Shown in pieces: positions 7,392 to 26,359 of a stretch of DNA of 64,000 bases. Within the stretch, counting starts at the first letter, position 1, and each line of letters opens with the position of its first letter. The notes beneath the pieces were generated by a model, which was not told where the DNA came from, ran no database searches, and was given only the letters and a program-made list of their open reading frames with translations. The stretch comes from Gemmatales bacterium. Its GTDB lineage: Bacteria > Planctomycetota > Planctomycetia > Gemmatales > HRBIN36. The translations under genes and the position numbers were made by a program. Location: NCBI GenBank assembly GCA_041640595.1, contig JBEPZY010000004.1:64001-128000 (forward strand). Reading direction: 5' to 3'.

Positions 7392-8846
7392 TCAGCGCAA
7401 GAAATCGAGCAAGCTTGGCTGCAATACCTGTGCGGTTGCGCCCAGCACGAGCAGAAGCTGATTTTGTTGCGCCTGCAGACGCACCACCAGCTCCGCGAGG
7501 TCCGCCTCTTCCAGTTCGCCTAACCGGCCGCGCAATTCCACCTGCGTATCCTGCAAGTGCTGCTCCAGCGTCTCCAGCTGAGCCAGCGTCGCGGACTGTT
7601 CCCCCAGGAAGTGAAGCAACCGCGCATGAACACTGTCGAGCGCATCGAGCGAGCGACTGATGGCTTGTGCCTGCTGGGTAGGCGACAGGCCGCGGACATT
7701 TTCCAGGTCGTCGCGCAGCGCTATAAACGAATCGAATAACCCGTAACTGTTGGGAAATTCCACCCAATCGGTTCCGGTGCGGCGAACCGCTGTGGTATCC
7801 AGAAAAATAGTTCGGCCCTGGGCATCAGTGAGTTGTTGATTGGGCGAAAAGGTGATCGGGGTAATCGTCACCCCGCCGTCCAGCGATAAGGTGCCGTCCG
7901 CGGTAATCGCCACTGTGCCGGAAAAACCAGGCGTGATGGCGGTTGTGTTGAGATAGACCACCTCTCCGTTCGGCCCCACCACACGCAGGTCGGTGTCGGC
8001 GTTTGTCCAGGTAAATACCGGCCCTCCGTTCAGCGATACCGTACCGCTGGCTCCTGTCCCGCTGGTATCCGTCAGCGTTACGGTATGGGCACCGCTGGGA
8101 CCGAGAACCGTATCACCCGTCGGGGAACTGGCTCCTGGCAAAACGCCTGAACCAGGCGCATACGTCGTGGCCGTGTGCTGCACAGTAACAGCTACGCGTC
8201 CCCGCAGGCTCGACGTGCCGTTTCCCACCGCCAGGCCGGTTTGACCGATCACAACAGCCGGGCCGGTTTCGCCTGGCTGGAAAACCTCCGCCCCACTGTA
8301 AAGGTAGCGCACCAGGTCCGCTTCCCCGATGGCCGCGGTAGCTTCCGCTTCGTCGCCGACATAGCGCACGCGCACAATGCGACCACTGCCGTCTCGCTCA
8401 GCAACGAAGGGGGCAGCATTCGAATGCGCTCCCGCAAAGACGTATTGATCGGGAGTTCGGCTGTTGACCTGGTCGAGCAATTGTCCCAGCAGTCCGTCCA
8501 TTTCCTGAGCGATAGCATGCAGGGAGTTGGGGTCCTGGCTCCCATGCACTGCTTCAATAGCCAGGCTCCGTGCTCGCGCTATGATGCTGCTGATGTTTTG
8601 CAGAGCACTTGAAGAAGTCTGAAGAGTCAGGCGAACATCGCGGAGATTGTTACCCAGAGCGGTCAGGTGCTCGACGCGGGAACGATAGACCTGAGCGGTA
8701 TGAAACTTCACCGGATCATCCGAAGACCGCTGCAACTTTTTGCCGGTAAGTGCCTGCTGATGTAGCCGACCCAGTTCCCGCAAGGTAGCCGACAGATGGT
8801 CCAGCGCGTTTTGCACCAGAGCCGTAAACGTGGTGCGTTGAATCAT
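7392..8846 (-). CDS. flgL: Flagellar hook-associated protein 3 (hook-filament junction)
   Basis: Flagellin-like N-terminus (TGKKLQRSSDDP), C-terminus LQPSLLDFLR, follows flgK. Confidence 0.9.
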   Translation of the reverse strand: MIQRTTFTALVQNALDHLSATLRELGRLHQQALTGKKLQRSSDDPVKFHTAQVYRSRVEHLTALGNNLRDVRLTLQTSSSALQNISSIIARARSLAIEAVHGSQDPNSLHAIAQEMDGLLGQLLDQVNSRTPDQYVFAGAHSNAAPFVAERDGSGRIVRVRYVGDEAEATAAIGEADLVRYLYSGAEVFQPGETGPAVVIGQTGLAVGNGTSSLRGRVAVTVQHTATTYAPGSGVLPGASSPTGDTVLGPSGAHTVTLTDTSGTGASGTVSLNGGPVFTWTNADTDLRVVGPNGEVVYLNTTAITPGFSGTVAITADGTLSLDGGVTITPITFSPNQQLTDAQGRTIFLDTTAVRRTGTDWVEFPNSYGLFDSFIALRDDLENVRGLSPTQQAQAISRSLDALDSVHARLLHFLGEQSATLAQLETLEQHLQDTQVELRGRLGELEEADLAELVVRLQAQQNQLLLVLGATAQVLQPSLLDFLR

Positions 8847-8862
8847 GGCTGTCTCTCAAGCT

Positions 8863-10827
8863 CTAGACAATGCGGAGCAATTCGTCGAGCGTGTCGTTGA
8901 CCACGGAAATATAGCGTGCCGCCAGCTGGAAAGCCCGTTGATGTTGCAACAGGCGGACCAGCTCTTCGTTGGGATCAACTCCGGAAACGGCCTGCTGCTC
9001 TGCCTGGAGTTGCTGGCTGACCGCGTGGAGATGATCTTCCACTTCAGCCGCGGATTGTACCTGTGCACCGATATCCGCCACCATGCGGTCGTAGAATCCG
9101 GCCAGCGTCAACCCGCTGCCTGGAAAGACAACCTGGGAGCGCAAGGCCAGCATTTCCCGCAATCGCCCGGCTTCGGCAGGTGCACCCGTGCGCGAAATCG
9201 CCAGCCGTGCGGGATCAGCGAGTACGTCGGGCTGCACTGCGACCGTCGCGGCATCTTTCCCCGTGAACAGCGTATTCAGCCCCAGAGCGCTCAGCAAACC
9301 GGCAGTGTCGGGCTCCGCGATGACAGGCACCTGAAAACTGTCTCCGGCATTGAGCGTTCCTGCCGAAAGTTGCACCAGCAGGCCATCCACGGCCGGGATC
9401 GCTGTGCCGGGAGCATAACCCTGGCCTACCTGCACGGTGCCCAGCACCTGGCCGGCGCTGTTGCGAATCTCCAGGGTCAAATTCGGCGTCACACCGATGG
9501 TGCCGCTCGTCAGGGCCTTAAATGTGTAGGTGTCGTTGACCGTGCCGGTGTATGTGCCGCTTACACTTGGCTGGGCCGTGCCAGTAATGCTCGTGGCTGG
9601 TTGGGTCGGTAGCCTGCCGGCAAAATCGAAAGCGTAACCCGGTTCGGCCAGGAACTTGAGGGTCCTGGTTTGAGGGTCGGCGATCGCTTGAAAGTGCGGT
9701 ACGCTGCTGAACGCCGACGCCAGTTGCGCCAGCGTTTGGGCACTCGGCTGCACCGACACGGCATGTAACGTTCGCTGTCCGGTGGCGAGATTGGTAATGC
9801 TGACGTAAACGGTGCCATTGCGGATTGGCCAGGCTGTATCGGCGCGGTCGAGGAAAATGTCCACGTGGCTTACCGACCTGGTTCCTGCCAGAAAAGTAAA
9901 CGGCCCGGCAAGACCTAATCCGCGAGCATGTATCGCATCGAACTCCCGCATCAGGACCCGTGCCAGTTCGTCGAGACGTTGGCGGAAATCGGCCAGGGTT
10001 TCATTCCGGGTCTGTAATAATCCAGCCAATCGCCCGCCCGGCAAGGTTACCGGCTCCGCACTGGTGCCGGCGAAGATGAGTAACCGATTTTCTGAGTCAA
10101 TTACCTGCCGCAGTTCTACCGCTTCCGTACCGCTGACCACCAGATTCCCACCCACCAGCACATTGACCTGTCCAAGCGGTTGTTCGATTACCTGCACTCC
10201 TACCAGCTGGGCAAGCTCTTGAATCAACTGATCGCGGCGATCCTGAGCATCGTTGGCGGGGCTACCGCGAGCCAGAGCCTGGGCAATTCGGCCGTTAAGT
10301 TCCGCAATCTGTTTTGTCAGCGCGTTGGCCTGTTGCAGAGCAGTTTGCACCTCGGCGGTGATTCCCTCGCGTAGCTCATTGAGCTGGTCCGCCACCTGGT
10401 GAAAACGGTTGGCGAGACGGTCAGCAGCATCCAGAACCAGCCGACGCTGCGTGAGATCTGCCGGCCGAACAGCCAATTCCTCCAGCCGATTGAAAAATTC
10501 GTCCAGAGCCTGACGCAGCGAACCGCTACCGCTCCCCAGGATAGTTTCCACCTCACGCAGGCGACTGAGCCGACTCGAAACAAACGCCAACTCACCCGCA
10601 TTTTGCCTGATGGCCTGCTCAAGCACCCCATCGCGCAAGCGTCGAATGGTGGTCAGTTCGACGCCGAAACCGATCGGATTTTCCGGGACAAATCGCGCCG
10701 CGAGTAACGGCTCCTGACGGTGATAACCAGGCGTATTGATATTGGCGATATTATGACCGAGCAGGTCGAGCACCTGCTGATTGACCCGAAAAGCCGAAAG
10801 CCCTGCCGAGAAATTCACGATGGCCAT
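8863..10827 (-). CDS. flgK: Flagellar hook-associated protein 1
   Basis: HNIANINTPGYHRQ N-terminus, SGVDPNEELVRLLQHQRAFQ C-terminus. Confidence 0.95.
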   Translation of the reverse strand: MAIVNFSAGLSAFRVNQQVLDLLGHNIANINTPGYHRQEPLLAARFVPENPIGFGVELTTIRRLRDGVLEQAIRQNAGELAFVSSRLSRLREVETILGSGSGSLRQALDEFFNRLEELAVRPADLTQRRLVLDAADRLANRFHQVADQLNELREGITAEVQTALQQANALTKQIAELNGRIAQALARGSPANDAQDRRDQLIQELAQLVGVQVIEQPLGQVNVLVGGNLVVSGTEAVELRQVIDSENRLLIFAGTSAEPVTLPGGRLAGLLQTRNETLADFRQRLDELARVLMREFDAIHARGLGLAGPFTFLAGTRSVSHVDIFLDRADTAWPIRNGTVYVSITNLATGQRTLHAVSVQPSAQTLAQLASAFSSVPHFQAIADPQTRTLKFLAEPGYAFDFAGRLPTQPATSITGTAQPSVSGTYTGTVNDTYTFKALTSGTIGVTPNLTLEIRNSAGQVLGTVQVGQGYAPGTAIPAVDGLLVQLSAGTLNAGDSFQVPVIAEPDTAGLLSALGLNTLFTGKDAATVAVQPDVLADPARLAISRTGAPAEAGRLREMLALRSQVVFPGSGLTLAGFYDRMVADIGAQVQSAAEVEDHLHAVSQQLQAEQQAVSGVDPNEELVRLLQHQRAFQLAARYISVVNDTLDELLRIV

Positions 10828-10854
10828 GGTTGCATCCGCGATTCCAGGGGGAGT

Positions 10855-11373
10855 CTAGCCCAGGAGCTGGATCAATGGGTCGCAGCAGCGCTGGCCGGGT
10901 TGTCCGTGTCGGTCATAATTTCCCGAACCTGGCGCAGATTCATTCAAGATGGCCGCAAGCATTCGGCCGTACAATTCACGCCCGAACCAGGCCAGCACCG
11001 CTACCCGCCGCAAATTCCGCTGCATTTCCAGGGCAAGCTGTCGCAGGCGCTCCCGCTGCCGACGCAATGACACCGCGGTGTCAGCGGTAAGCCGGCTTTC
11101 AAACGCCAACCAGTCCACACTTCCGTCACCGCGTACCGGCAGATTCCTTTTCAGAGCTTCCCGCTCCGCCTGTAATTTCTCCGCCCGCTTGGCCTGTACG
11201 AGAAACTCCTCCAGTACCGCACTAAGCTGGGCCAACTCCCCATTGACCAGACACGCATGCAGTCGAGCTAACGCTTCGCGCAGCGACTGGAGCCTTGCTT
11301 CTTCCTGCTCCAGATAATATGCCACGGCGGTCGCTGAAATCTGTGGATGCTCGCTCATGGTGATCGCTTTCAT
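10855..11373 (-). CDS. flgN: Flagellar export chaperone FlgN-like
   Basis: Small helical coiled-coil protein directly upstream of flgK, ending with Y-D-R-H-G and ...IQLLG; largely positional call. Confidence 0.65.
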   Translation of the reverse strand: MKAITMSEHPQISATAVAYYLEQEEARLQSLREALARLHACLVNGELAQLSAVLEEFLVQAKRAEKLQAEREALKRNLPVRGDGSVDWLAFESRLTADTAVSLRRQRERLRQLALEMQRNLRRVAVLAWFGRELYGRMLAAILNESAPGSGNYDRHGQPGQRCCDPLIQLLG

Positions 11374-11389
11374 CTAATGTTCAGGTTGC

Positions 11390-11824
11390 TCAGACGCCAG
11401 AGGTTGCCCGCGGGGAATTCGATAACCGTGGCTCGCTTCCTGAAGCCTCGGGTGTCTCCTGCGATAGCTTGGCTGCCCCGGTTTGCCATCGCTCATAGTG
11501 CTCTTGTATCAGTCGGCCGATGCCGAGCTGCTGCCGCTGGGCCAGAAACTGCCCAAGATAATAATCGAAGAGTCCACCAAAAATGTCGGCCTCATCTCCA
11601 GCGAACAAGCCTTCCCCTAATTCCTGAGTGGTCTGCCGCAACTGTTTGATGAGCGTGCTGTAAAAGAGCGCCTCGAAACTCAAAGCCGCCTGCCGCAATG
11701 CCTCTTTTGATTTCGCGGCATGTTCTGCGAGTGATGTCCGTCCAGACCTGACCAGGCCGGCTAGCCGGTCCGCTTGTGTCGCCAGGAGATCTACCGGTAT
11801 TCGCGGTGTGGCCAGAAGTTCCAT
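11390..11824 (-). CDS. flgJ: Rod-binding protein (FlgJ N-terminal domain only, no muramidase domain)
   Basis: LRQAALSFEALF...IKQLRQT...QLGIGRLI rod-binding pattern, downstream of flgI. Confidence 0.75.
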   Translation of the reverse strand: MELLATPRIPVDLLATQADRLAGLVRSGRTSLAEHAAKSKEALRQAALSFEALFYSTLIKQLRQTTQELGEGLFAGDEADIFGGLFDYYLGQFLAQRQQLGIGRLIQEHYERWQTGAAKLSQETPEASGSEPRLSNSPRATSGV

Positions 11825-11852
11825 CCTGCTTCTCCGGCTTTTCGGTTGCACT

Positions 11853-12977
11853 TCATTCAATAATGAGTTCCGCATGCAACGCCCCGGCGTCCTTCAGTGC
11901 CTGGAAAATGGCAATCAAATCGCGAGGGGTAACGCCCAGGGCGTTTAGAGCGCGGGCCAGCTCGGCTACCGTGACCGATTGCTCCACCACCGCCAGACCT
12001 CCGCCTTGTTCGGTTACGTTGAGTTGCGTACGTGGCACTACCGTCGTCTGGCCGCGACTAAAAGGCAATGGTTGCGACACTTCGGGATTTTCCGCGGTTA
12101 CGATCGTGAGATTGCCGTGCGCGACCGCCACTGTAGATATTTTGACATGCTGTCCGGCAACGACCGTTCCGGTGCGCTCATTGATAACAACCACCGCTAC
12201 TGCATCGGGAGCAACTTCGAGCAAGCCGATCTCTCCGGCAAAACCCACCACATTGCCACGTTTTTCCGGCGGAATGGCCACCTCCACCGTGCCGGCGTCC
12301 AGAGTTACTGCCGATTCTGGAAATTTCTGGTTGATAGCACGGGCAATAGCTTGTGCCGTTGTGAAATCCGGACGCTTCAGTAAAAGACGCAACCGTCCAT
12401 TGCAAACGATCTCGCCTCGTGCCTCAGCCTCTACAATCGCTCCACCTGGAATGCGTCCCACCGTCGGAAAATTCTGCTGTGCCGATGCCGCTCGTCCAGT
12501 TGCTAAAAATCCTCCCACCGATACAGGCCCTTGGGCCACCGCATACACTTCCCCATCCGCTCCGCGCAAAGGCGTCAAAAGCAGCACGCCACCCTGCAAA
12601 CTCTTGGCGTCATCCAGCGCCGATACGGTCACGTCTATTCGACTCCCTTTGCGTGCAAACGGGCCTAACTCCGCCGTCACCATCACAGCCGAAATATTCC
12701 CCGAACGAAACACTGGATCAATCTGCGATTCTCGCACTGCCTTCGCATTCACCGATAGTTTCTGCAACATATCCGCCGCTACCTGTTGTGTGAACTGACT
12801 GCGTCCACCTGTATTACCCAGTCCCACAACTAAACCAAATCCATAGAGCTGATTCGGCCGTGCCCCTTCAAAGTCGGTAATATCCTTGATCCGCACCGTC
12901 TGTGCTTGTGCTTGCGGGAGGCAATTCCATAAGTATAAGGCTACTAATAAAACCCGTGGTCGGTTGCAGAACCTCAT
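11853..12977 (-). CDS. flgI: Flagellar P-ring protein
   Basis: RIKDI...NQLYGFGLVVGLGNTG, INERTGTVVAG, ALKDAGALHAEL. Confidence 0.96.
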   Translation of the reverse strand: MRFCNRPRVLLVALYLWNCLPQAQAQTVRIKDITDFEGARPNQLYGFGLVVGLGNTGGRSQFTQQVAADMLQKLSVNAKAVRESQIDPVFRSGNISAVMVTAELGPFARKGSRIDVTVSALDDAKSLQGGVLLLTPLRGADGEVYAVAQGPVSVGGFLATGRAASAQQNFPTVGRIPGGAIVEAEARGEIVCNGRLRLLLKRPDFTTAQAIARAINQKFPESAVTLDAGTVEVAIPPEKRGNVVGFAGEIGLLEVAPDAVAVVVINERTGTVVAGQHVKISTVAVAHGNLTIVTAENPEVSQPLPFSRGQTTVVPRTQLNVTEQGGGLAVVEQSVTVAELARALNALGVTPRDLIAIFQALKDAGALHAELIIE

Positions 12978-13082
12978 ATGTCTGCCACCCTTGATTTTGC
13001 CCCGAAATTATCTTGCTGCTGGATATTGCACATGGTATGTTTCCGCCGATATTTATTCTGGTAGCACTATGCGTCATCTAGC

Positions 13083-13778
13083 TTAGAACGGCCAAAGACG
13101 ATTCATGATACGGCCCCACCAGTTCGGGTCGTTATAACTCGATTCATAACCCCGTCCCAGATATTCGATGCTAAGGTTGCCGATAAACTGCGATTGAACG
13201 GTGTTGTTACTGGCTATATCAACCGGCCGTACAATACCCCGCAGGCGTAAAATGCGTTGTTCTCCACTTATGACGCGACTACGGTAACCTTCGATGACGA
13301 GATTTCCGTTTGGTAGAACCGCCACGACCTCAACTGTTATACGATCAGCCATCCGCCGGTCAGCGCGATAATCGGCCTTCCCCTGGAAACTTCGTTCGGC
13401 ATCGTTACTGATATTCAGAGCCGCCTCAGCTTTTCGGCTCGACACATTTCCCTGTGTTTTGCCCTTAAACTGAAAGGCTTCCGAACTGCGCGTTTGCTTC
13501 TCCATGTCCCGCTTATCTCGATTATCTATATCCGTGGTCTCGTTGATGATCACTGTCAGCAGATCGCCTACCCGACGGGCACGCAGATCGGTGAATAGAT
13601 AAGCACTTCGGGGGTCGCGTCGGTCCCAGAGCGACTCGCCCCAGACATGGCTGGTAAATGCTAAGGCGAATCCTATGCTGATTAATCCAGCCAAGCAAAG
13701 GAGTGACTTATGCTGATAATAGCTCTCGCATCGGCTAACCTGCGTATTATCCATTCTCTTTCCCCCGCAGTAAGCCAC
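13083..13778 (-). CDS. flgH: Flagellar L-ring protein
   Basis: DLRARRVGDLLTVIINE, VLPNGNLVIEG, GIVRPVDI, C-terminal WPF; exact start uncertain. Confidence 0.93.
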   Translation of the reverse strand: MAYCGGKRMDNTQVSRCESYYQHKSLLCLAGLISIGFALAFTSHVWGESLWDRRDPRSAYLFTDLRARRVGDLLTVIINETTDIDNRDKRDMEKQTRSSEAFQFKGKTQGNVSSRKAEAALNISNDAERSFQGKADYRADRRMADRITVEVVAVLPNGNLVIEGYRSRVISGEQRILRLRGIVRPVDIASNNTVQSQFIGNLSIEYLGRGYESSYNDPNWWGRIMNRLWPF

Positions 13779-13840
13779 CCTGGTGGTTCTAACATATAAT
13801 AATGTCCCTTAGCCGCAGCTATCTTGTTCGTTTTTATGCT

Positions 13841-14668
13841 TTAGTAATCCACCTGCACGGTAGCTGGCCGCAATACCCGCGCATGCACAACCTGCTTAGA
13901 ATCCACATTCCGGACCGGAATTACCTGTCCGATCTTGCCATCTGCCAGGGCTTCGCCGCGAGTGCTAATCTCCAGCACGCCCACTCGTGCGATCATCCGA
14001 ACAAACTCTCCTTTCTTGATCACGGTGGTCTGTTCCGCACTTGCAATGTGTTCGGCTCGGATTACTTGATTCGGCGATATATTACGACTCACCGTTCGGC
14101 CATAAGCGGCATTTGGGCTTACAGCATTGGTCTCGCCGACTCTGTGTTCCGTTCGCGTGTTATTGGGACTAAGCAGCTCGCCTGGCTGCAACGATCTGGC
14201 AGCCACCAGCACCACGTCTCCACCGGTAGCGGAAACAGATCCGGTCTGTTTGAACCTAACTCGGGTCATTCGCGCCCCTTCTATCCGAACAGTGTCGGGA
14301 TGAATTCCCGCCAGGCGGATTCGGTAAACGACTCGTCGCTGGCTGATTATTAATTCGCTGCCCGGGCCCGCGCTTTCCTCTAACTCAAGCGGAGCAATCT
14401 GCAGGCGCCTGGGAGCAGGCCCGCCTCTAATGTCCGCAATATCCCCTATCTGTACGCGGCCGGCAGGTAACTCTACTTCCTCATGCATGACAACATACGT
14501 TACGTCATCACCTGATTCCACGCCTAATAACTTGCCCGGCAGCATAGGCGTTGAAGCGAAAGCAACAGTCAGTGTGAACAGCATGAGCTTCAGGAGCGCA
14601 AAAAGGTAATGCCTGGACTGTTGCGACAGGAATGCTACCTGCTTCATGGGAAGCATTAGCCGTACCAT
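13841..14668 (-). CDS. flgA: P-ring assembly chaperone FlgA
   Basis: SAF-like C-terminus (GEALADGKIGQVIPVRNVDSKQVVHARV), between flgG and flgH. Confidence 0.85.
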   Translation of the reverse strand: MVRLMLPMKQVAFLSQQSRHYLFALLKLMLFTLTVAFASTPMLPGKLLGVESGDDVTYVVMHEEVELPAGRVQIGDIADIRGGPAPRRLQIAPLELEESAGPGSELIISQRRVVYRIRLAGIHPDTVRIEGARMTRVRFKQTGSVSATGGDVVLVAARSLQPGELLSPNNTRTEHRVGETNAVSPNAAYGRTVSRNISPNQVIRAEHIASAEQTTVIKKGEFVRMIARVGVLEISTRGEALADGKIGQVIPVRNVDSKQVVHARVLRPATVQVDY

Positions 14669-14760
14669 ATCACTATCGTGGTTATACTCTGTAGTGCCTA
14701 CTGCGTCCTCAGATGGTAAGGCTCCGATGACTATCGTTGTTCATCGGGTCTAGCGTGCTC

Positions 14761-15552
14761 CTATCGGACCAATTCGTTGGAACTGGCCAGCATATCATCG
14801 GCGACACGTATAGCCTTACTGTTAAATTCGTAAGCTCGCTGTGCCAGGATAAGATTAATAAGCTCCTGGACGACATCTACGTTGGACCTTTCCAGGAACC
14901 CCTGCCGTATAGTACCCACTCCATCCTGCCCTGGAGTTGCTTCCACTGGGGCACCGGAAGATGCGGTTTCCGCGTAAAGATTGCGGCCTTCGCTGCTAAG
15001 TCCGGCAGGATTAGGAAAACGTACCAGCACGAGATTGCCAATTACTGTGGATGTTGTCGGAGCGTCGGCGGTAATCACGGAAACCGTCCCATCAGTGGCT
15101 ATGGATATAGACAGGGTGTTGACTGGCACCGTGATTGGAGGATCGAGCAGAAAACCATCGGAAGTGACTACTTGACCGTTGGCATTCATGCGAAAGGCAC
15201 CATCGCGGGTATATCGGAAGGTGCCGTTCGGCAGTTGCACGCGGAAAAATCCTTCCCCTTCAATAGCGAGATCCAGGGGATTGTTAGTATTTTCGAGCAC
15301 CCCCTCGCTAAACAACTTCATGTTACCGCCGATGCGCACGCCGCTACCGATCTGCAAGCCATTTTGTTCCTGCAAACCGGCAGCGGTTTCCGCACCGGTA
15401 GGTCGCTGGGTAACGTAAACCAGATCCTGAAACGATACCTGGCTCTTCTTGAATCCGGTTGTATTGACGTTAGCGAGATTGTTAGCGGTGTTATCTACTA
15501 CAATTTGTTGCGCTGCCATGCCGGTGGCACTGGTGAAGAGGGACTTAAGCAT
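14761..15552 (-). CDS. flgG: Flagellar distal rod protein
   Basis: ANNLANVNTTGFKK, YTRDGAF, LERSNVDVVQELINLILAQRAYEFNSK. Confidence 0.96.
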   Translation of the reverse strand: MLKSLFTSATGMAAQQIVVDNTANNLANVNTTGFKKSQVSFQDLVYVTQRPTGAETAAGLQEQNGLQIGSGVRIGGNMKLFSEGVLENTNNPLDLAIEGEGFFRVQLPNGTFRYTRDGAFRMNANGQVVTSDGFLLDPPITVPVNTLSISIATDGTVSVITADAPTTSTVIGNLVLVRFPNPAGLSSEGRNLYAETASSGAPVEATPGQDGVGTIRQGFLERSNVDVVQELINLILAQRAYEFNSKAIRVADDMLASSNELVR

Positions 15553-15573
15553 GGCTATCTCCCCTGCTAAGTT

Positions 15574-16305
15574 TTACGAGCCTGGTCGCGTTTGCAGTTG
15601 CAGACTATCTGCTAATACGTGCAAGGCGCGTTGTGCCGCTTCAAAATGACGTAAAGTCGTAATGAGTTGCACCAATTGACTTACGATATCCACGTTAGAA
15701 CTTTCACGATAGCCCTGAAGAACACTACTGTCATTAGCATCACTAACAGCTTCGGGCGGAGCACGGAATAAAGTCGCACCAACTGGTTCTAATGCTCGCG
15801 GATCATTGATTTCGACCAGACGGATTTGTCCTACGGTCTGCGTGTCGGCGAGCACAGTGCCATCCTGAAGTATAGTAACCGTGGATGTGTTCTCGGGCAA
15901 GGTAATGCGTCCACCAGCACCGAGGAGAGGATAACCACCGGGAGTGACTAACTCTCGGGCCGCATTCAAAGAGAGGGAACCCGCGCGGGTGTAAAGCGGA
16001 CCATCGGGGCCTTCCACAACGAAAAAGCCAGGACCGCGAACAGCGAGATCAAGAGGTGCCCCAGTAAACTCAATTGCTCCCTGAGTCAAGTCCACGAGCG
16101 ATCCTGCACGAAGTGTACCGTAACGCTCATATTCTGTCGGGGCGGCGCCTAGAACCTGATTCAGCTGTGCCTCGAAGGTTGCCGAGGCATCGAGTCGCTG
16201 GCGGTAACCGGGGACAGCGGCATGGGCGAGGTTAAAAGCCACTAGCTCCTGGTGTTCCTGAGCACGATTCAAGGCAGTAGCGGCACTATAAAAACCCGTA
16301 AGCAT
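15574..16305 (-). CDS. flgF: Flagellar proximal rod protein
   Basis: NLAHAAVPGY, DLAVRGPGFF, YTRAGSL, QGYRESSNVD; upstream of flgG. Confidence 0.9.
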   Translation of the reverse strand: MLTGFYSAATALNRAQEHQELVAFNLAHAAVPGYRQRLDASATFEAQLNQVLGAAPTEYERYGTLRAGSLVDLTQGAIEFTGAPLDLAVRGPGFFVVEGPDGPLYTRAGSLSLNAARELVTPGGYPLLGAGGRITLPENTSTVTILQDGTVLADTQTVGQIRLVEINDPRALEPVGATLFRAPPEAVSDANDSSVLQGYRESSNVDIVSQLVQLITTLRHFEAAQRALHVLADSLQLQTRPGS

Positions 16306-20476: not shown

Positions 20477-21199
20477 ATGATGAGCACCACGACAATTGAC
20501 AAGAGTGCAAGCCGAATTCGCGGCATGTTCGGTGCCATCGCGCCGACTTACGATTTGCTGAACCATTTGCTCAGTTGCAATGTGGATCGTTACTGGCGGT
20601 GGAAAACCACGCAATTAGTTCCGCCGGACGCTGGAATACCCGTCCTCGATGTGTGTACAGGTACGGGAGATTTAGCCCTGGCTTACTGGCGACGCGGTCG
20701 CGGACAGGTGCCGGTGATTGGAGCCGATTTTTGCGGCGATATGCTCGCCCTGGCGCGTCGCAAAGCAGCCCGGTTAGGCGCCCGCAATGTTGCGTTTGTC
20801 CAGGCCGATGCGCAACGGCTGCCGTTTGCCGACAATTATTTCCAGATCGTCAGCGTAGCCTTCGGCCTGCGCAACATCAGCGATTACCAACAAGGTCTGG
20901 CAGAAATGGTGCGGGTGGTGCAGCCAGGTGGCCGGGTTGTTATTCTCGAATTCTCACGCCCCAGTCAATCCCTGGCCGGACGGCTATACCGCTGGTATTT
21001 TCGGCGTTTGCTCCCGTGTATCGGACAGCTACTGTCGGGCACCCGGGCGTATTATTACCTGCCAGCCAGCGTGCTGGAGTTTCCCGACGGCGAGGCGTTG
21101 GCCAACGTTTTGAGGCAGATGGGCCTGGTAAACGTCTGGTATCGGCCGTTCGCTTTCCGCATTGCCACGCTGTATGTGGGTAGCAAGCCGAAAACTTGA
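20477..21199 (+). CDS. ubiE: UbiE/MenG quinone C-methyltransferase
   Basis: MFGAIAPTYDLLNHLLS, LDVCTGTGD, AFGLRNI, ILEFS. Confidence 0.92.
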   Translation: MMSTTTIDKSASRIRGMFGAIAPTYDLLNHLLSCNVDRYWRWKTTQLVPPDAGIPVLDVCTGTGDLALAYWRRGRGQVPVIGADFCGDMLALARRKAARLGARNVAFVQADAQRLPFADNYFQIVSVAFGLRNISDYQQGLAEMVRVVQPGGRVVILEFSRPSQSLAGRLYRWYFRRLLPCIGQLLSGTRAYYYLPASVLEFPDGEALANVLRQMGLVNVWYRPFAFRIATLYVGSKPKT

Positions 21200-21335
21200 A
21201 GCTAGCGAACGCGGCATGGCAGTGGGTAAGGGCATCCGTGTTCCAGCCACCTATAATCACTGCAACCCGGAACAAGTTTCCGCCAGAGACTGGCATGCGA
21301 CTGCTATCCGGTTCGATGCCCAGGAGACACAAGCG

Positions 21336-21938
21336 ATGACCGCGGTGGTGGATAAACCGAAAGTTACGCCGGAGGATTTGCTCAAGATGCCCAGGGATCG
21401 CCGTTACGAACTCGTGGACGGCGAGCTGGTGGAGAAACCGATGGCTTGGAGTACGGCAGTAGTTACAGCGCATCTGGTCAGATTACTAGGCAACTATTGT
21501 GAGGCACACAAGACTGGGGTCGTGGCGGACTCCAGTGCCAGTTACCGCTGCTTTCCCCATGACCCCGATCGGGTGCGAAAACCCGACATTTCGCTGATCC
21601 TGAGAGAGCGAATAACCCCGGAGTTGCTGGAACCAGGACACATCCGCATTGCTCCCGATCTGGTTGTGGAAGTGGTTTCGCCCAACGACGAAGTGAGTGA
21701 GGTGGACAAACGTGTGCTCGATTACCAGCGTGCCGGTGTTCCGCTGTTATGGGTGGTGCATCCTGAATCGCGTCATGTGGACGTTTATCGGCTGGGCAGG
21801 CGTGGTGAGATTCTGAGCGAACAACACGAACTGACCGGCGAACCGGTGTTGCCAGGCTTTCGCTTACCGGTACGCGAAATTTTCCGCCCTTTAGAGCTGG
21901 TTCCAGTGTCCGAAGCGAAAACCGGTGGCCAGACATAG
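21336..21938 (+). CDS. Uma2-family (DUF820) putative endonuclease, copy 1
   Basis: YELVDGELV, RKPDIS, APDLVVEVVSPND, YQRAGVPLLWVV, EPVLPGF; AGGAG RBS. Confidence 0.93.
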   Translation: MTAVVDKPKVTPEDLLKMPRDRRYELVDGELVEKPMAWSTAVVTAHLVRLLGNYCEAHKTGVVADSSASYRCFPHDPDRVRKPDISLILRERITPELLEPGHIRIAPDLVVEVVSPNDEVSEVDKRVLDYQRAGVPLLWVVHPESRHVDVYRLGRRGEILSEQHELTGEPVLPGFRLPVREIFRPLELVPVSEAKTGGQT

Positions 21939-22531
21939 GCGGCTTTGTCTGTTTCTGCGGAGAGGCATCATGACCGCGGTGGTGGATAAACCGAAAGTTA
22001 CGCCGGAGGATTTGCTCAAGCTGCCCAGGGATCGCCGTTACGAACTCGTGGACGGCGAGCTGGTGGAGAAACCGATGTCGGCAATGGCTGGAGCGGTGTG
22101 TGCTGAGCTGCTCTTCAGACTTGGAACGTTTCTGGAGTCCACTCGGCAGGGAACGCTGTTCAGTGCGGACACCGGTTACCAGTGCTTCGTAAAGTGCCCC
22201 GACAAAGTACGTAAACCGGACATCTCGTTTATCCGAAAGGAACGCATCACGGCTGACTTGTGGGAGCAAGGCTTCATTCGCATTCCGCCCGATCTGGTGG
22301 TAGAAGTGTTATCGCCCAGCGACTCCACATCCGAGACAGAGAGACGGGTGGATGATTATCTTGACGCTGGTGTGCCCCTGGTCTGGGTGGTTCAACCGGA
22401 AACGCGGCGAGTTTACGTCTATCGCCACGGTGGCACAGGCCTGATTTTGCGAGAACAAGACGAACTGACCGGCGAACCTGTGTTGCCAAGCTTTCGCTTA
22501 CCGGTACGCGAAATTTTCCGCCCTTTAGAGC
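21336..22531 (+). repeat. Direct repeats at both ends of the two Uma2 genes (634-bp offset)
   Basis: 21336-21443 vs 21970-22077: 107/108 nt identical; 21819-21897 vs 22453-22531: 76/79 nt identical (manual alignment). Confidence 0.95.
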
Positions 22532-22563
22532 AACTTACGCAACAGCCCTCGCAAACGAAGTGA
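21970..22563 (+). CDS. Uma2-family (DUF820) putative endonuclease, copy 2
   Basis: Same motifs (RKPDIS, PDLVVEVLSPSD, YLDAGVPLVWVV). Confidence 0.93.
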   Translation: MTAVVDKPKVTPEDLLKLPRDRRYELVDGELVEKPMSAMAGAVCAELLFRLGTFLESTRQGTLFSADTGYQCFVKCPDKVRKPDISFIRKERITADLWEQGFIRIPPDLVVEVLSPSDSTSETERRVDDYLDAGVPLVWVVQPETRRVYVYRHGGTGLILREQDELTGEPVLPSFRLPVREIFRPLEQLTQQPSQTK

Positions 22564-22570
22564 ACATTCC

Positions 22571-23593
22571 ATGAGCTCGGAACATCTGCTATTGCGGGCC
22601 TTGCAAGGCAAGCCAGTACCGCGTCCGCCTGTCTGGGCGATGCGGCAAGCGGGGCGCTGGGATCCGAAATTTCGCGAATTGCGGGCAGAACGTGATTTCT
22701 ACAGTTTTGCCACGGATAGCCAGCTCGCGGCACAAGCCTCGTTGCTTCCGGCACGTTTCGGTGTGGATGCGATTATTCTTTTCTACGACATTACCACGCT
22801 GGCCCAGGCTATGGGCGTGGCATTTCAAATGCAGGCAGGCGGTCCTGTGCCTGTCGCGCCCACGACCAGCATGTCTCAGGTTCGCCAGTTGTCTGAGGAA
22901 CCGGACGCTGACCGCTTTGCATCGGTGCTGGATACTTTGAGTGCCGTGCGGCAGGCCTTACAAGATGCCTCTGGTCGGAAGCGGTTACCTATCCTCGTGT
23001 TTGCCGGCGCACCGTTTACGCTGGCGAGCTATTGCCTGGGTACGGGCAAGGACATCACCGCCACCTGTCGCTTCGCAAGAGAAAATCAGGACGTGTTTGC
23101 AGCATTGCTGGACAAGCTGGAGTCGGCAACGATTCATTTTGTCCGCACACTGTTACGGCAGGGTGCGGATGCGTGGCAACTGTTCGACTCCTGGGCCGGG
23201 GGATTACCAGCAGACGATTACGCACGCTGGGCTTTGCCTTACCATCAGCGCATTTTCGCGGCCATCCCCGAGGCTCCCGGAATCCTGTTCGTAAAAGAGT
23301 GTCCTTATCTGGACTGGCTCGTAGCCAGCGGCGCACGTGCTGTCAGTCTGGGTGTTACGCATGACCTGCGAACCGCACGCCAGCGTTACCCCAATGTGGT
23401 GTTTCAGGGGAACGTGGATTCCCGGGTGTTGCGCGATGGCCAACCACTTGATGTCATCGAGGTTGCGCGTGCCTGCGTCCAGGCTGGCGGCAAAAGCAAC
23501 CACATCGTCAACTTGAACCACGGCGTGGATCCGCGTACCCCGGTGGAAAACTTTGCTGCCTTCGTTGCCACCGTACGGGGTTGCGAAAGTTAG
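22571..23593 (+). CDS. hemE: Uroporphyrinogen decarboxylase
   Basis: PPVWAMRQAGR, DAIILFYDI, GAPFTLASY, QLFDSW, NLNHGV. Confidence 0.92.
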   Translation: MSSEHLLLRALQGKPVPRPPVWAMRQAGRWDPKFRELRAERDFYSFATDSQLAAQASLLPARFGVDAIILFYDITTLAQAMGVAFQMQAGGPVPVAPTTSMSQVRQLSEEPDADRFASVLDTLSAVRQALQDASGRKRLPILVFAGAPFTLASYCLGTGKDITATCRFARENQDVFAALLDKLESATIHFVRTLLRQGADAWQLFDSWAGGLPADDYARWALPYHQRIFAAIPEAPGILFVKECPYLDWLVASGARAVSLGVTHDLRTARQRYPNVVFQGNVDSRVLRDGQPLDVIEVARACVQAGGKSNHIVNLNHGVDPRTPVENFAAFVATVRGCES

Positions 23594-23784
23594 TGCTCTT
23601 CCGCAGGTCTTGGCAATTCTTCGTGGTGTTTACACGGCACCGGTTTCCGATTTTTTCGAAGTATCGTCCTGCGCCGGGCGTGAGTGTGTGCTAGACTTGT
23701 TCGGCCTTTGCGTGAGACAACGAAAAAGAGGGTTATGGTGAAAGCGCAACTTTTTGCGCTTCGCTAACTATCGCGGACGCCAAG

Positions 23785-24636
23785 ATGATCGCTATTGTCG
23801 GTGCGGTGGTGGTACTGGCAGCGGTGCTGCTCGGCTTCACCATGGCCGGGGGACACGTTGGCGCGCTGATCCATCCTTCCGAACTTGTGGTGATCGGAGG
23901 CTCGGCTCTGGGTGCGCTGATAATCATGTCCCCCAAACGCGTGCTCGTGGATGTGGCTAAGGGGATCGTGCAGGTCATTAAAGGCTCACCTTACGATAAA
24001 GCCACCTGCATGGAACTGCTGGGGGTGCTCAATGCTTTAGCCCGACTTGCTCGCCGTGACGGCATGCTGGCTCTCGACAGCCACCTTTCCGATCCCGAAA
24101 ACAGCGACATTTTCCGCCAGTATCCAAGAGTGCTTCATAACCATCATTTGCGACAATTCCTGTGCAATGCCCTGAGCCGGATCGTGGATGGTTCTGCCGA
24201 ACCGGAGGCCCTGGAGCAAGAACTGGAAAGCGACATCGCCGTCCTGGAACGCGAACATCACCAGGTGGTTACGGCCCTGGCTAAAACAGCCGACAGTTTG
24301 CCCGGCTTTGGCATCGTAGCGGCAGTGCTGGGCATTGTCATCACCATGCAGGCCATTGATGGGCCGGTGGAAGAGATCGGCCACAAGGTAGGCGCGGCTC
24401 TGGTCGGAACGTTCCTGGGTATCTTGCTCTCCTACGGCTTTCTGACACCGCTGGCCGCACGTCTGGAACTCATTGGGGAACAGGAAACGGTGGTGTTGCG
24501 AGCGGTTATTTTGGCCACCGTGGAACTGGCCAAGGGCGCCAATCCGCGCGAATTGATTTCCCGCGTCAGCCGTGTCCTCAGCAGTGATTGCCGACCCACC
24601 GCCGAGGAACTCAAGCAACTGGTAGGCAGCAGCTAG
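23785..24636 (+). CDS. motA: Flagellar stator A subunit
   Basis: ARRDGMLALD torque loop, LPGFGIVAAVLG, GAALVGTFLGILLSYGF. Confidence 0.95.
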   Translation: MIAIVGAVVVLAAVLLGFTMAGGHVGALIHPSELVVIGGSALGALIIMSPKRVLVDVAKGIVQVIKGSPYDKATCMELLGVLNALARLARRDGMLALDSHLSDPENSDIFRQYPRVLHNHHLRQFLCNALSRIVDGSAEPEALEQELESDIAVLEREHHQVVTALAKTADSLPGFGIVAAVLGIVITMQAIDGPVEEIGHKVGAALVGTFLGILLSYGFLTPLAARLELIGEQETVVLRAVILATVELAKGANPRELISRVSRVLSSDCRPTAEELKQLVGSS

Positions 24637-24646
24637 GAGACCAACG

Positions 24647-25270
24647 GTGGCGGCTAAAGGCGGCGGTCAGTGGAAGGTAGCCTATGCCGATTTCGTAACG
24701 GCCATGATGGCCTTCTTTCTCGTCATGTGGATCACTGCCCAGGATCAGAAAATCAAGCAGGCAGTCGCGCGATATTTCAACAACCCCATGAATTTCGAGT
24801 CCGTTGGACAGTCAACGAAGCCCGACAAAACCGGCTCCGCCTTGCCCATGCCCAGCACCGGACAGGTGCCCTTGCAAGACAGCGTAGCGATGGGGCAAGG
24901 CCGACATTCTTATTCGCAACCAGCTCCCAAAAGTCCTCAAACCAAAGCCGTCGCCGACTGGATCCACTCCAAACAGGACCAGCTGCAGCACTGGCTACGC
25001 GAAGCCGAACGCTCCTACTGGCTGGCAGCCCAATCCCCCGAGGTGCGTCTCAAACGTCGGCCCGTGCGCGAAGTCGCTACTCAGCAGTTGGCGCGTCGCC
25101 TCCGCGAGGAGTTTGCCGATAATATACCCCCGTCGGTTTCCGGTATTTACCAGGACCTGCTCTACTTCTCCCTCAGTGAGGTTAACTGGGCGGAGATCGC
25201 CGAAGACCTTCTCACCCACTGGCAAGGTTCCAATACGGCCAGCCAACTCTTGAACAGCAAAGTGCCGTAA
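24647..25270 (+). CDS. motB: Stator B subunit: MotB TM/plug region with non-OmpA C-terminal domain
   Basis: GGQWKVAYADFVTAMMAFFLVMW with the essential Asp, AGGAG RBS, directly after motA; no OmpA-like motifs. Confidence 0.85.
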   Translation: MAAKGGGQWKVAYADFVTAMMAFFLVMWITAQDQKIKQAVARYFNNPMNFESVGQSTKPDKTGSALPMPSTGQVPLQDSVAMGQGRHSYSQPAPKSPQTKAVADWIHSKQDQLQHWLREAERSYWLAAQSPEVRLKRRPVREVATQQLARRLREEFADNIPPSVSGIYQDLLYFSLSEVNWAEIAEDLLTHWQGSNTASQLLNSKVP

Positions 25271-25720
25271 CTCGTGTGGCGATTTCCCTCGCCTGGTTTA
25301 CTTGCCGAGATTGTGTCGGCTGCTACAAACCCGATATCCGTGCAAGGGCATCGAGCCCAGACGAAAGGGGCTTCAACATCCCCCGCGGCCACAATCCCGC
25401 TATCTGCGCGATGGCACCCCTTGAAGTTACGGGGCTGGCGTTTATGATAAGGGAGCGATGTCGCTGCGACTGAACGCATGGAATCGCAACATTTTTCGCT
25501 CTGCGAGGAACTTTACGACTGCCGCAGCCGGCCAAAATGCCCCTTATCGGGAAGTGCTGCGGTAGTCGCTACCGTCCAGCAATCAGACGACGCACAAATA
25601 ATCGCCTGCCCCAATTTCCCGGTCAAATCAAAACGAAACTTTGGCAGCGTCCGGGCTTTCTCAGACTCCCGGCTCCGCTTAGAATTGCGGCAAACCTCGC
25701 TCGATTGCAAAACCTTGGCC

Positions 25721-25792
25721 TGCCCGGTGGTGTAAATGGTAGCACAAGGGATTTTGGTTCCCTTTGTCCAGGTTCGAATCCTGGCCGGGCAG
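25721..25792 (+). tRNA. tRNA-Gln(TTG)
   Basis: Acceptor TGCCCGG/CCGGGCA, anticodon arm AGGGA-TTTTGGT-TCCCT, T-loop GTTCGAATC. Confidence 0.96.
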
Positions 25793-25820
25793 CTCTGTCA
25801 CGCTTCGTGCCGCCAGCAAC

Positions 25821-25848: not shown

Positions 25849-26286
25849 ACACCATGGTTTCGTCGCAGCCCTGACGGATCGAACTTTTGTTCACCCGATT
25901 TACACGGGAGCAGGACGGCTACCGGGAGCCGTGAGTCGCACGCTGCCAGTCCGAGCTTTCATTTACCCAGTTTCACACCCGCCACACGATCAGTGCTCAG
26001 ACCGTCAAGTTCGCCGGCAACGTGCCCCTGGCATTGATATTGTGAATCCAAGGCCCAACAGCCTCAGTTCTCGTTCGGATACCGTCTAACTCGACAACAT
26101 CGTCGGGCTGGCAGACGAAGGAAACAGTTCCAGTCCCGGTTCAAATCCCCTCGCCGTCGGTCCGGACTGCGACACCAACCCGCAAGGCCACGCCAAAGGA
26201 ATCCGGCACCGACAGCGTTCCGGCTTTTTGCAACGTTCCCTTCAGGATGAGGCACGACTCCGATCGAGGCGTCCGGCGCTGCGGAG

Positions 26287-26359
26287 TGCCCCCAGGGGGA
26301 CTCGAACCCCCGTCTTGGCCTTGAGAGGGCCACGTCCTAGGCCGCTAGACGATGGGGGC
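26287..26359 (-). tRNA. tRNA-Glu(CTC)
   Basis: Reverse complement GCCCCCATCGTCTAGCGGCCTAGGACGTGGCCCTCTCAAGGCCAAGACGGGGGTTCGAGTCCCCCTGGGGGCA folds as a cloverleaf with anticodon CTC. Confidence 0.97.

Follow-up and report, generated by a model that had tools for sequence, protein, structure and literature searches.

How is a flagellar stator held in place when its B subunit lacks the domain by which stators are usually anchored? This question is raised by a motA-motB gene pair in a 64,000-nucleotide stretch of DNA from a Gemmatales bacterium (the window), which corresponds to positions 64001-128000 of contig C4 in a 4.45-Mb genome (G000) that is spread over 42 contigs and is 95.5% complete. 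MotB and PomB normally anchor stators to peptidoglycan through an OmpA-like domain; this domain serves as the fixed point for torque, and its unfolding upon incorporation is part of the accepted activation model. In the MotB of the window the OmpA-like domain is replaced by a helical domain, and is not merely diverged. As the OmpA-like anchor is absent and the stator still needs a fixed point, a different anchoring mechanism follows as a logical consequence. The reading towards which we lean, taken as a whole, is that the pair encodes a single flagellar ion-driven stator of the MotA5MotB2 type, in which the OmpA-like domain has been swapped and which would be anchored through contacts with other proteins.

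A helical domain in place of the OmpA-like domain

The A subunit is encoded by an intact motA (23785-24636, forward strand; 283 residues; PF20560 MotA_N 1.6e-26, PF01618 MotA_ExbB 5.2e-14), which is followed on the same strand after 10 bases by an intact motB with a GTG start (24647-25270, stop included; 207 residues); motA lies directly 5' of motB in all 37 related loci. The sole Pfam match of this MotB is MotB_plug (PF13677; residues 4-48, 57.2 bits against a cut-off of 24), with nothing besides it at E 0.1. Residues 1-48 (24647-24790, forward) comprise a short cytoplasmic tip, a transmembrane helix with a conserved aspartate, Asp15 (WKVAYADFVTAMMAFF), and the plug. Conservation was assessed on an alignment of 26 MotB sequences (A1), in which residues 9-24, including Asp15, are invariant and residues 1-48 have a mean pairwise identity of 0.80. 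Residues 49-95 (24791-24931, forward) form a periplasmic linker, which is predicted to be disordered from its pLDDT (predicted local distance difference test) and bears a conserved motif in the alignment, and residues 96-204 (24932-25258, forward) form a helical DUF7249-like domain at the OmpA-like position, as delineated by AlphaFold2 and hhalign.

In the Pfam search PF00691 (OmpA) has no match in this MotB at E <= 1, and a six-frame search of the whole 4.45-Mb genome with the same model gave 0 matches; hence no OmpA remnant lies downstream in any frame. When applied to 151 genomes sampled from the phylum, the same six-frame search detected OmpA domains in 147. Scores against the NCBIfam MotB equivalogs fall far below their cut-offs, the best being NF006548 with 72.4 bits against 277 over residues 4-116, and the ZorB1 model aligns to the protein with an E-value of 0.033 (13.6 bits against a cut-off of 400). 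The first-pass annotation, made from the letters and open reading frames, had described an intact motA followed by a 207-residue MotB with transmembrane helix, aspartate and plug but no OmpA-like signature. The domain search upholds the first part, and the profile searches of MotB and of the genome agree with the second, although the signatures GHTD and NxxLSxxRA were not searched as strings. The identity of the protein as a MotB and the architecture given here are hardly in doubt.

The AlphaFold2 model of MotB, built on the 26-sequence alignment and read with DSSP, has helices at residues 97-108, 110-128, 131-134, 140-158, 167-177 and 181-204 and no strand, with a block pLDDT of 84-91 across residues 101-190, except for 76 at 161-170. 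The well-formed helical domain of about 100 residues that had been perceived in the letters is therefore recovered in the model, and the option that it folds as a divergent OmpA-like domain is contradicted by a prediction consisting of helices only, with no central beta-sheet. Six positions of the domain (T99, W116, L148, W181, A185 and D187) are invariant in the 26 sequences, and its pairwise identity ranges from 26 to 86% across the family, with a mean of 0.38. Foldseek gave 0 matches at E <= 1e-3 against the PDB, and VIA-align over 48,161 chains reached a best Z of 5.8, which is within the noise for helical domains. In the BFVD there were likewise 0 matches at E <= 1e-3, the top three (E 0.02-0.03) being small uncharacterised proteins of Caudovirales. 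No OmpA-like chain is among the Foldseek and VIA-align matches, which would be weak as sole evidence.

Relatives of the domain were found at the sequence level. A phmmer search with residues 94-207 against 1.84 billion representatives retrieved 176 proteins at E <= 1e-3 (best about 1e-7), many of them proteins of 100-250 residues with the domain at the N-terminus. Among 23 scanned matches, 12 carry PF23907 (DUF7249), three a C-terminal PF20213 (DUF6573) and one a PA14 domain, and phrog_871 is matched by seven of 11 such relatives. Comparing the profile of the MotB alignment with that of 20 DUF7249-type proteins, hhalign gave a probability of 99.5% (E 4e-23) over 107 columns, corresponding to MotB 95-201, and a feature-space comparison also points, weakly, to DUF7249 viral clusters (score 0.81). 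The likeness to a family of stand-alone phage and bacterial proteins, which the first-pass annotation had suggested, can accordingly be given a name, DUF7249 (PF23907)/phrog_871. The MotB domain and these proteins have in common the pattern W...W...DLL...VxWxEIA, and the nearly invariant or invariant columns of the mobile-element family include W, L, D-L-L, V-x-W and A.

The two groups differ in context. The DUF7249/phrog_871 proteins, which come from phages, plasmids and integrated elements, are cytoplasmic in type, without an export signal, and have the domain stand-alone or at the N-terminus, often fused to DUF6573, whereas the MotB domain is C-terminal, periplasmic by topology, near neutral and devoid of the N-terminal YNGWxNYETW extension. 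The net charge of the first 110 residues of the mobile-element proteins is -2.1 to -20.4 (-6.4 or lower in 19 of 20), as against -9.5 to +1.6, with a median of about -1.9, for the MotB domain, such that their strong acidity is lost in the latter. In an unrooted tree of the domain with 44 rows (P0188 and P0240, of the 20 aligned mobile-element proteins, were missed by the motif filter and left out), 17 of the 18 mobile-element rows group in a single clade (100/99) distinct from the MotB rows, and the remaining one, P0221, is a long branch among the MotB rows. Searches of DUF7249-type proteins by tblastn matched only the DUF6573 half in plasmids (262 records); in phages a single match, to an unannotated jumbo-phage contig, was near full length, and the other 56 matches were to a short N-terminal motif in Synechococcus phages. 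No annotation was gained from these plasmid and phage matches, and no paper mentioning the words DUF7249 or DUF6573 was found in the literature. Fused or longer forms of the C-domain were absent at E <= 1e-3 among proteins of 364-2000 residues, which is weak evidence.

Copies of the mobile-element type, starting with YNGWxNYETW, also occur in the same order and class (L035-L043, from genomes G181, G170, G210, G208, G288 and G248); in some of them the domain is joined to DUF6573 or to a C-terminal module that ends in ...TEADRSxTxxLLPxEY. Separately, the 356-residue protein P0121 has a signal-peptide-like start, a weak match to the Ig-like domain of FlgD and a PA14 domain, followed by the MotB linker motif and a helical C-domain that is 47% identical to that of the window. 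It represents either linker and domain as a unit on another exported protein or a chimeric contig.

Distribution and origin of the short MotB

In a sample of 151 genomes of the class, the short MotB was recovered at full length in 14, including closed genomes, which belong to the family of the window, its sister family and two genera of the family f2 (four genomes). Sixteen other genomes of the class matched at the N-terminus only, and all 10 of those retrieved encode a MotB_plug+OmpA protein whose N-terminal 45 residues hardly differ; beyond the class, N-terminal matches alone were obtained in six genomes, through open reading frames of 258-320 residues. Canonical MotB counts were taken from a census of PF13677 (76 genomes), a full-length MotB profile having undercounted them (32). 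Surveyed in this manner across Planctomycetota, as the first-pass annotation had proposed, the short MotB turns out to be a clade-wide form rather than a feature of one assembly, and the 10 class-mates examined outside the clade have the canonical MotB.

A maximum-likelihood tree of MotA was computed from 38 rows, 17 of them short-MotB rows, 16 canonical rows of the class and 5 an outgroup taken from other classes; L013, which is truncated, and duplicate loci were excluded. All 17 short-MotB MotAs fall in one clade (97/92; 98% of bootstrap trees), with the four f2 short rows sister to the rows of the order, apart from the f2 canonical clade (95/95). From these sequences it appears probable that there was one domain swap, in an ancestor of the clade and within an orthologous lineage.

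The PF13677 census also uncovered a second kind of stator without OmpA, in which two MotB-like genes (about 212-235 and 251-281 residues) stand in tandem behind the gene for a PomA-like MotA (257 residues). It is present in 11 of the 151 class genomes, nine from f2 and two from f80. In three genomes (loci L073:8805-11037 in G042, L074:4830-6272 in G316 and L075:4264-5666 in G215) all six tandem MotB-like proteins have MotB_plug only, with no OmpA at E <= 0.1.

Anchoring of the stator

Beyond the helical domain, two features bear on how the stator could be fixed, the first being the linker. It displays a motif of the form G54, G63, G72-x-x-P75, A81 and G83-x-G85-R86, of which G54, G72, P75, G83, G85 and R86 are invariant in the 26 sequences. 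Its pLDDT is below 50 at residues 46-59, 66-75 and 78-91, and its mean pairwise identity is 0.39, compared with 0.38 for the folded domain. A segment that is predicted to be disordered yet is conserved suggests the signature of a short binding motif.

The second feature is a putative exported tetratricopeptide-repeat (TPR) protein of 364 residues with an N-terminal hydrophobic segment, encoded elsewhere in the genome (C2:270867-271958, reverse strand; equivalent to L063:9868-10959), which is the candidate partner. Its layout is a signal-peptide-like start, seen in all seven copies inspected, a coiled coil, a proline-rich spacer and a C-terminal domain of about 100 residues that models as paired-helix TPR hairpins (AlphaFold2, pLDDT 88). 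The nearest solved folds in Foldseek are all TPR domains, including that of the periplasmic YbgF/CpoB (best E 0.014), and the Pfam TPR models score below their cut-offs (TPR_16, 24.3 bits against 32.7). An initial synteny screen (1.5-kb flanks, E 1e-8) had returned only motA-motB as conserved and missed this downstream gene, which was found later: in 11 of the 14 short-MotB genomes of the sister family it follows motB directly, in the same orientation, and it is present in 22 of 23 short-MotB genomes. Of the class sample, 25 genomes yielded a strong match (E <= 5e-12), namely all 14 with short MotB, 10 of the 11 with tandem MotB and G168, whereas none of the 51 other MotB_plug genomes did.

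We propose that an ancestor of the clade would have exchanged the peptidoglycan-binding OmpA-like domain for a helical domain of about 100 residues of the DUF7249/phrog_871 type, with MotB keeping the transmembrane helix with its ion-binding aspartate and the plug. The stator would then be fixed round the rotor by protein-protein contacts and not by peptidoglycan binding of the OmpA type, and these contacts may be made by the new domain, the conserved linker motif or both. As the partner we envisage a flagellar scaffold in the periplasm, for which the exported TPR protein that accompanies OmpA-less stators is the best candidate. Contacts with protein are suggested by a linker that is as conserved as the fold, by the MotB domain having shed the strong acidity of its mobile-element relatives and by the existence of a candidate TPR partner; we hold protein-mediated anchoring tentatively, with a chance slightly short of even, and the role of the TPR protein as the anchoring partner of MotB is possible though distinctly doubtful. 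A fuller version of the same proposal would have the stator anchored by protein only, in bacteria (the order of the window) with no detected genes for penicillin-binding proteins, SEDS proteins or L,D-transpeptidases: the mobile-element-derived domain and the linker would dock onto the exported TPR scaffold, and the tandem-MotB stators would use the same scaffold. This, too, we regard as rather unlikely in its entirety.

Several points weigh against the proposal. The anchoring mechanism is itself inferred from sequence, and the domain, resembling no solved structure, has a fold that gives no functional hint. Its homology to DUF7249/phrog_871 is drawn from phmmer and the profile-profile comparison and not from the family models directly, as the window MotB has no match to PF23907 at E <= 1, nor residues 94-207 to PHROG at E <= 0.01. 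The unrooted domain tree leaves undecided whether the apparent capture went from mobile element to MotB or in reverse, and a presumed single origin can accommodate the four f2 short-MotB genomes only if the operon was transferred or was differentially lost. As to the TPR protein, one genome with short MotB and FliG (G154, 96% complete) has no match to it even by profile, and G168 carries it without MotB or FliG. Moreover, in the genus of the window its gene lies away from motAB, flanked by the genes for a 727-residue TPR protein and a sigma-54 activator; the activator is again its neighbour in three f2 genomes (G141, G268 and G042), and the protein may have a broader role.

The foremost alternative is that the helical domain is a new wall-binding module, which would attach directly to peptidoglycan or another envelope polymer and so keep the stator fixed to the wall, though not through OmpA. 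Genome G000 has no match to the penicillin-binding protein transpeptidase (PF00905), SEDS FtsW/RodA (PF01098) or L,D-transpeptidase YkuD (PF03734) models and a single match to Mur_ligase_M; its P-ring gene flgI is nevertheless intact. Penicillin-binding proteins are matched in none of 35 sampled genomes of the order, nor in G000, and OmpA-like domains are scarce in the order and score weakly, with 56 of 81 at E <= 1e-3 and just 35 of 81 clearing the cut-off. These proteins are, on the other hand, found in the four f2 genomes among the 14 with short MotB, and there is a report of peptidoglycan for Gemmata obscuriglobus (Jeske et al. 2015, cited in PMC5147048); at least some members of the clade therefore probably have a wall to bind.

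The retention of flgI and the one short-MotB genome without a TPR candidate are also in favour of wall binding, and all-helical wall-binding domains exist elsewhere, an example being Pfam PG_binding_1. Against this, the relatives of the domain are small cytoplasmic-type mobile-element proteins without an export signal and offer no wall-binding lineage, structural searches gave no match to any wall-binding domain (weak evidence), and the genome of the window lacks matches to the three enzyme families named above. On balance we consider a wall-binding role unlikely, if still a serious contender.

We also considered loss of peptidoglycan as a sufficient cause of the swap. Across the class, loss of penicillin-binding protein genes and the short MotB are unassociated: these genes are also absent from seven of the 10 genomes in which MotB_plug+OmpA was verified and from 30 of the 51 other MotB_plug genomes. 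Wall loss, although it may be of importance in this genus, therefore does not suffice to explain the swap.

An improbable alternative is that the C-domain is no anchor at all and instead serves dimerisation or control of the plug in activation upon incorporation, the stator being held by other parts such as FliL or the linker motif bound to the basal body. FliL is indeed present, and the linker, with six invariant residues, is conserved as much as the fold. Further, W116, L148, W181, A185 and D187 are largely common to the mobile-element family and so look like a core rather than a binding site specific to MotB. Yet the domain sits exactly where every class-mate has its anchoring domain, it has been kept across the family at pairwise identities of 26-86%, and the B subunit has to be held fixed for torque to be generated, as established for MotB/PomB.

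Flagellar role, surroundings and significance

The first-pass annotation had left room for an ion motor repurposed for a non-flagellar task. The genome, however, contains a single MotB_plug match and no second, canonical motB, as was borne out when one was looked for, and MotA scores above the cut-off of the NCBIfam flagellar equivalog TIGR03818 (MotA1; 313.9 against 303.8 bits). FliG and FliL are present in the genome, and FlgH, FlgI and other flagellar proteins are encoded in the window. In 61 relatives, drawn from its own genus, family and order, full-length short MotB is found in 19 and FliG_C in 19, with both in 18 and neither in 41; the two mismatches are G200 (MotB only) and G157 (a partial FliG only), and G208, which matched only via a mobile-element copy of the domain, is not counted among the 19. 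Each of the 14 genomes with short MotB in the class sample has one PF13677 match and no more, and in the sister family motAB forms the end of a flagellar export cluster, fliF-fliG-fliI-fliJ-fliPQR-flhB-flhA-sigma factor. Given these sequence associations this stator very probably has a flagellar role.

That a MotAB-like motor serves some other task here is very improbable: the pair does lie outside the flg cluster, beside hemE-like and tRNA genes, and the seven MotA/ExbB/TolQ-family matches of the genome, six of them besides motA, imply that such motors are used for other tasks in this organism, but without this sole MotB_plug gene the flagellum would have no stator, MotA exceeds its flagellar cut-off, short MotB and FliG occur together with only two exceptions, and the sister family has motAB within its flagellar export cluster.

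FliG itself was seen to vary in its match to PF01706, with E-values of 1e-21 to 1e-32 in genomes with short or tandem MotB and 1e-40 to 1e-45 in those with canonical MotB; the rotor protein facing MotA may thus differ between the two groups as well. Many weak, partial FliG_C matches (1e-17 to 1e-21) in the family f78 may not be FliG.

The architecture is not peculiar to this assembly, as had been feared at the outset. When 5.8 billion proteins were searched through a word index, 7,956 matches were significant; the best 120 homologous clusters have 181-225 residues, PF13677 as the only Pfam domain in 119 and a query coverage of 64-100% (at least 86% in all except P0007), and some are on contigs of 1.6-1.9 Mb. 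The source annotation of the short homologues is MotB of 'Gemmatales bacterium'. At least half of the sampled words of the stretch were present in 17 public runs, mostly of hot-spring and microbial-mat metagenomes, and the 20 rows carrying it come from 16 studies. Contigs of three runs, from three studies, span 23500-25800 in one piece each (X3 to 25767) with 28-37 substitutions (about 98.5% identity), and have insertions or deletions only at 25366, 25609 and 25709, all past the motB stop. Two contigs come from RNA libraries, X13 (3,135 bases), which spans motA-motB, and X18 from another run (151 bases), which lies within motA; their presence does not prove transcription. With the same length and domain content in the best 120 clusters, no insertion or deletion inside motA-motB in independent assemblies and full-length matches in 19 of 61 relatives and 14 of 151 class genomes, some of them closed, an assembly artefact, frameshift or chimera can for practical purposes be set aside.

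As first noted, the pair is separate from the flg operon. The flagellar cluster flgF-flgG-flgA-flgH-flgI-(Rod-binding-like open reading frame)-flgN-flgK-flgL (7395-16305, reverse strand) is about 7.5 kb away on the opposite strand and was delineated by Pfam matches, which include the P-ring gene flgI (11856-12977, reverse; 6.1e-126), the L-ring gene flgH (13086-13778, reverse; 1.1e-44), ChapFlgA, FlgK_D1, Flagellin_N and rod domains. The 161-residue open reading frame between flgI and flgN (11393-11875, reverse) has a weak match to Rod-binding (the FlgJ N-terminal part; E 0.0013, below the cut-off), and no muramidase part was seen in it. A hemE-like gene precedes motA, and upstream of it are two adjacent paralogous genes (21162-22563, forward) of the Uma2 family (PF05685), a family of putative restriction endonucleases. 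Downstream of motB are tRNA-Gln (25721-25793, forward) and tRNA-Glu (26286-26359, reverse). Eight bases past the motB stop a pattern scan marks a weak terminator-like hairpin (25278-25293, forward), which is a consensus match only, three such sites being seen in the region against 2.7 expected from shuffles.

Compared with the canonical MotB/PomB of E. coli, Salmonella and Vibrio (MotB_plug + OmpA), the protein described here shares the operon with motA, the transmembrane aspartate, the plug, a flexible linker and a periplasmic C-domain, but this domain is all-helical and unrelated to OmpA, and the protein misses the NCBIfam MotB scores. Stators positioned by periplasmic proteins have precedents, PomB by the MotX/MotY T-ring in Vibrio and MotB by the TPR protein PflB in Campylobacter/Helicobacter. 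The likeness lies in a B subunit placed by dedicated periplasmic proteins, one of which has TPRs; in the present case the gene of the candidate is often in the operon. Unlike the MotB of the window, however, those B subunits keep their OmpA-like domain, and the TPR candidate is small (about 200-360 residues) and shares only the generic TPR fold with known proteins. In the same superfamily, ExbD, TolR, AglS, GldL-type proteins and the Zorya protein ZorB likewise couple a 5:2 ion motor to different periplasmic domains; in contrast to these, the MotB N-terminal module and MotA of the window are of the flagellar type and track FliG, the ExbD and TolR models not having been searched separately. No description of an OmpA-less flagellar MotB in Planctomycetes was found in the literature searched, which did not extend to subscription journals.

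The OmpA-like domain has been treated as a defining and indispensable part of MotB/PomB, and here is a natural, clade-wide and apparently functional flagellar stator that lacks it. For such a stator another fixed point must exist, and the case offers a test of which features of an anchor are really needed. It also documents the apparent capture of a phage- or plasmid-type domain by a core motility protein, and for the first time places DUF7249/phrog_871, to which no function has been assigned, in a cellular context. With cultured members of the same order the anchoring could become directly testable. More broadly, the finding bears on the composition of the planctomycetal envelope and on how envelope-spanning machines are fitted into it.

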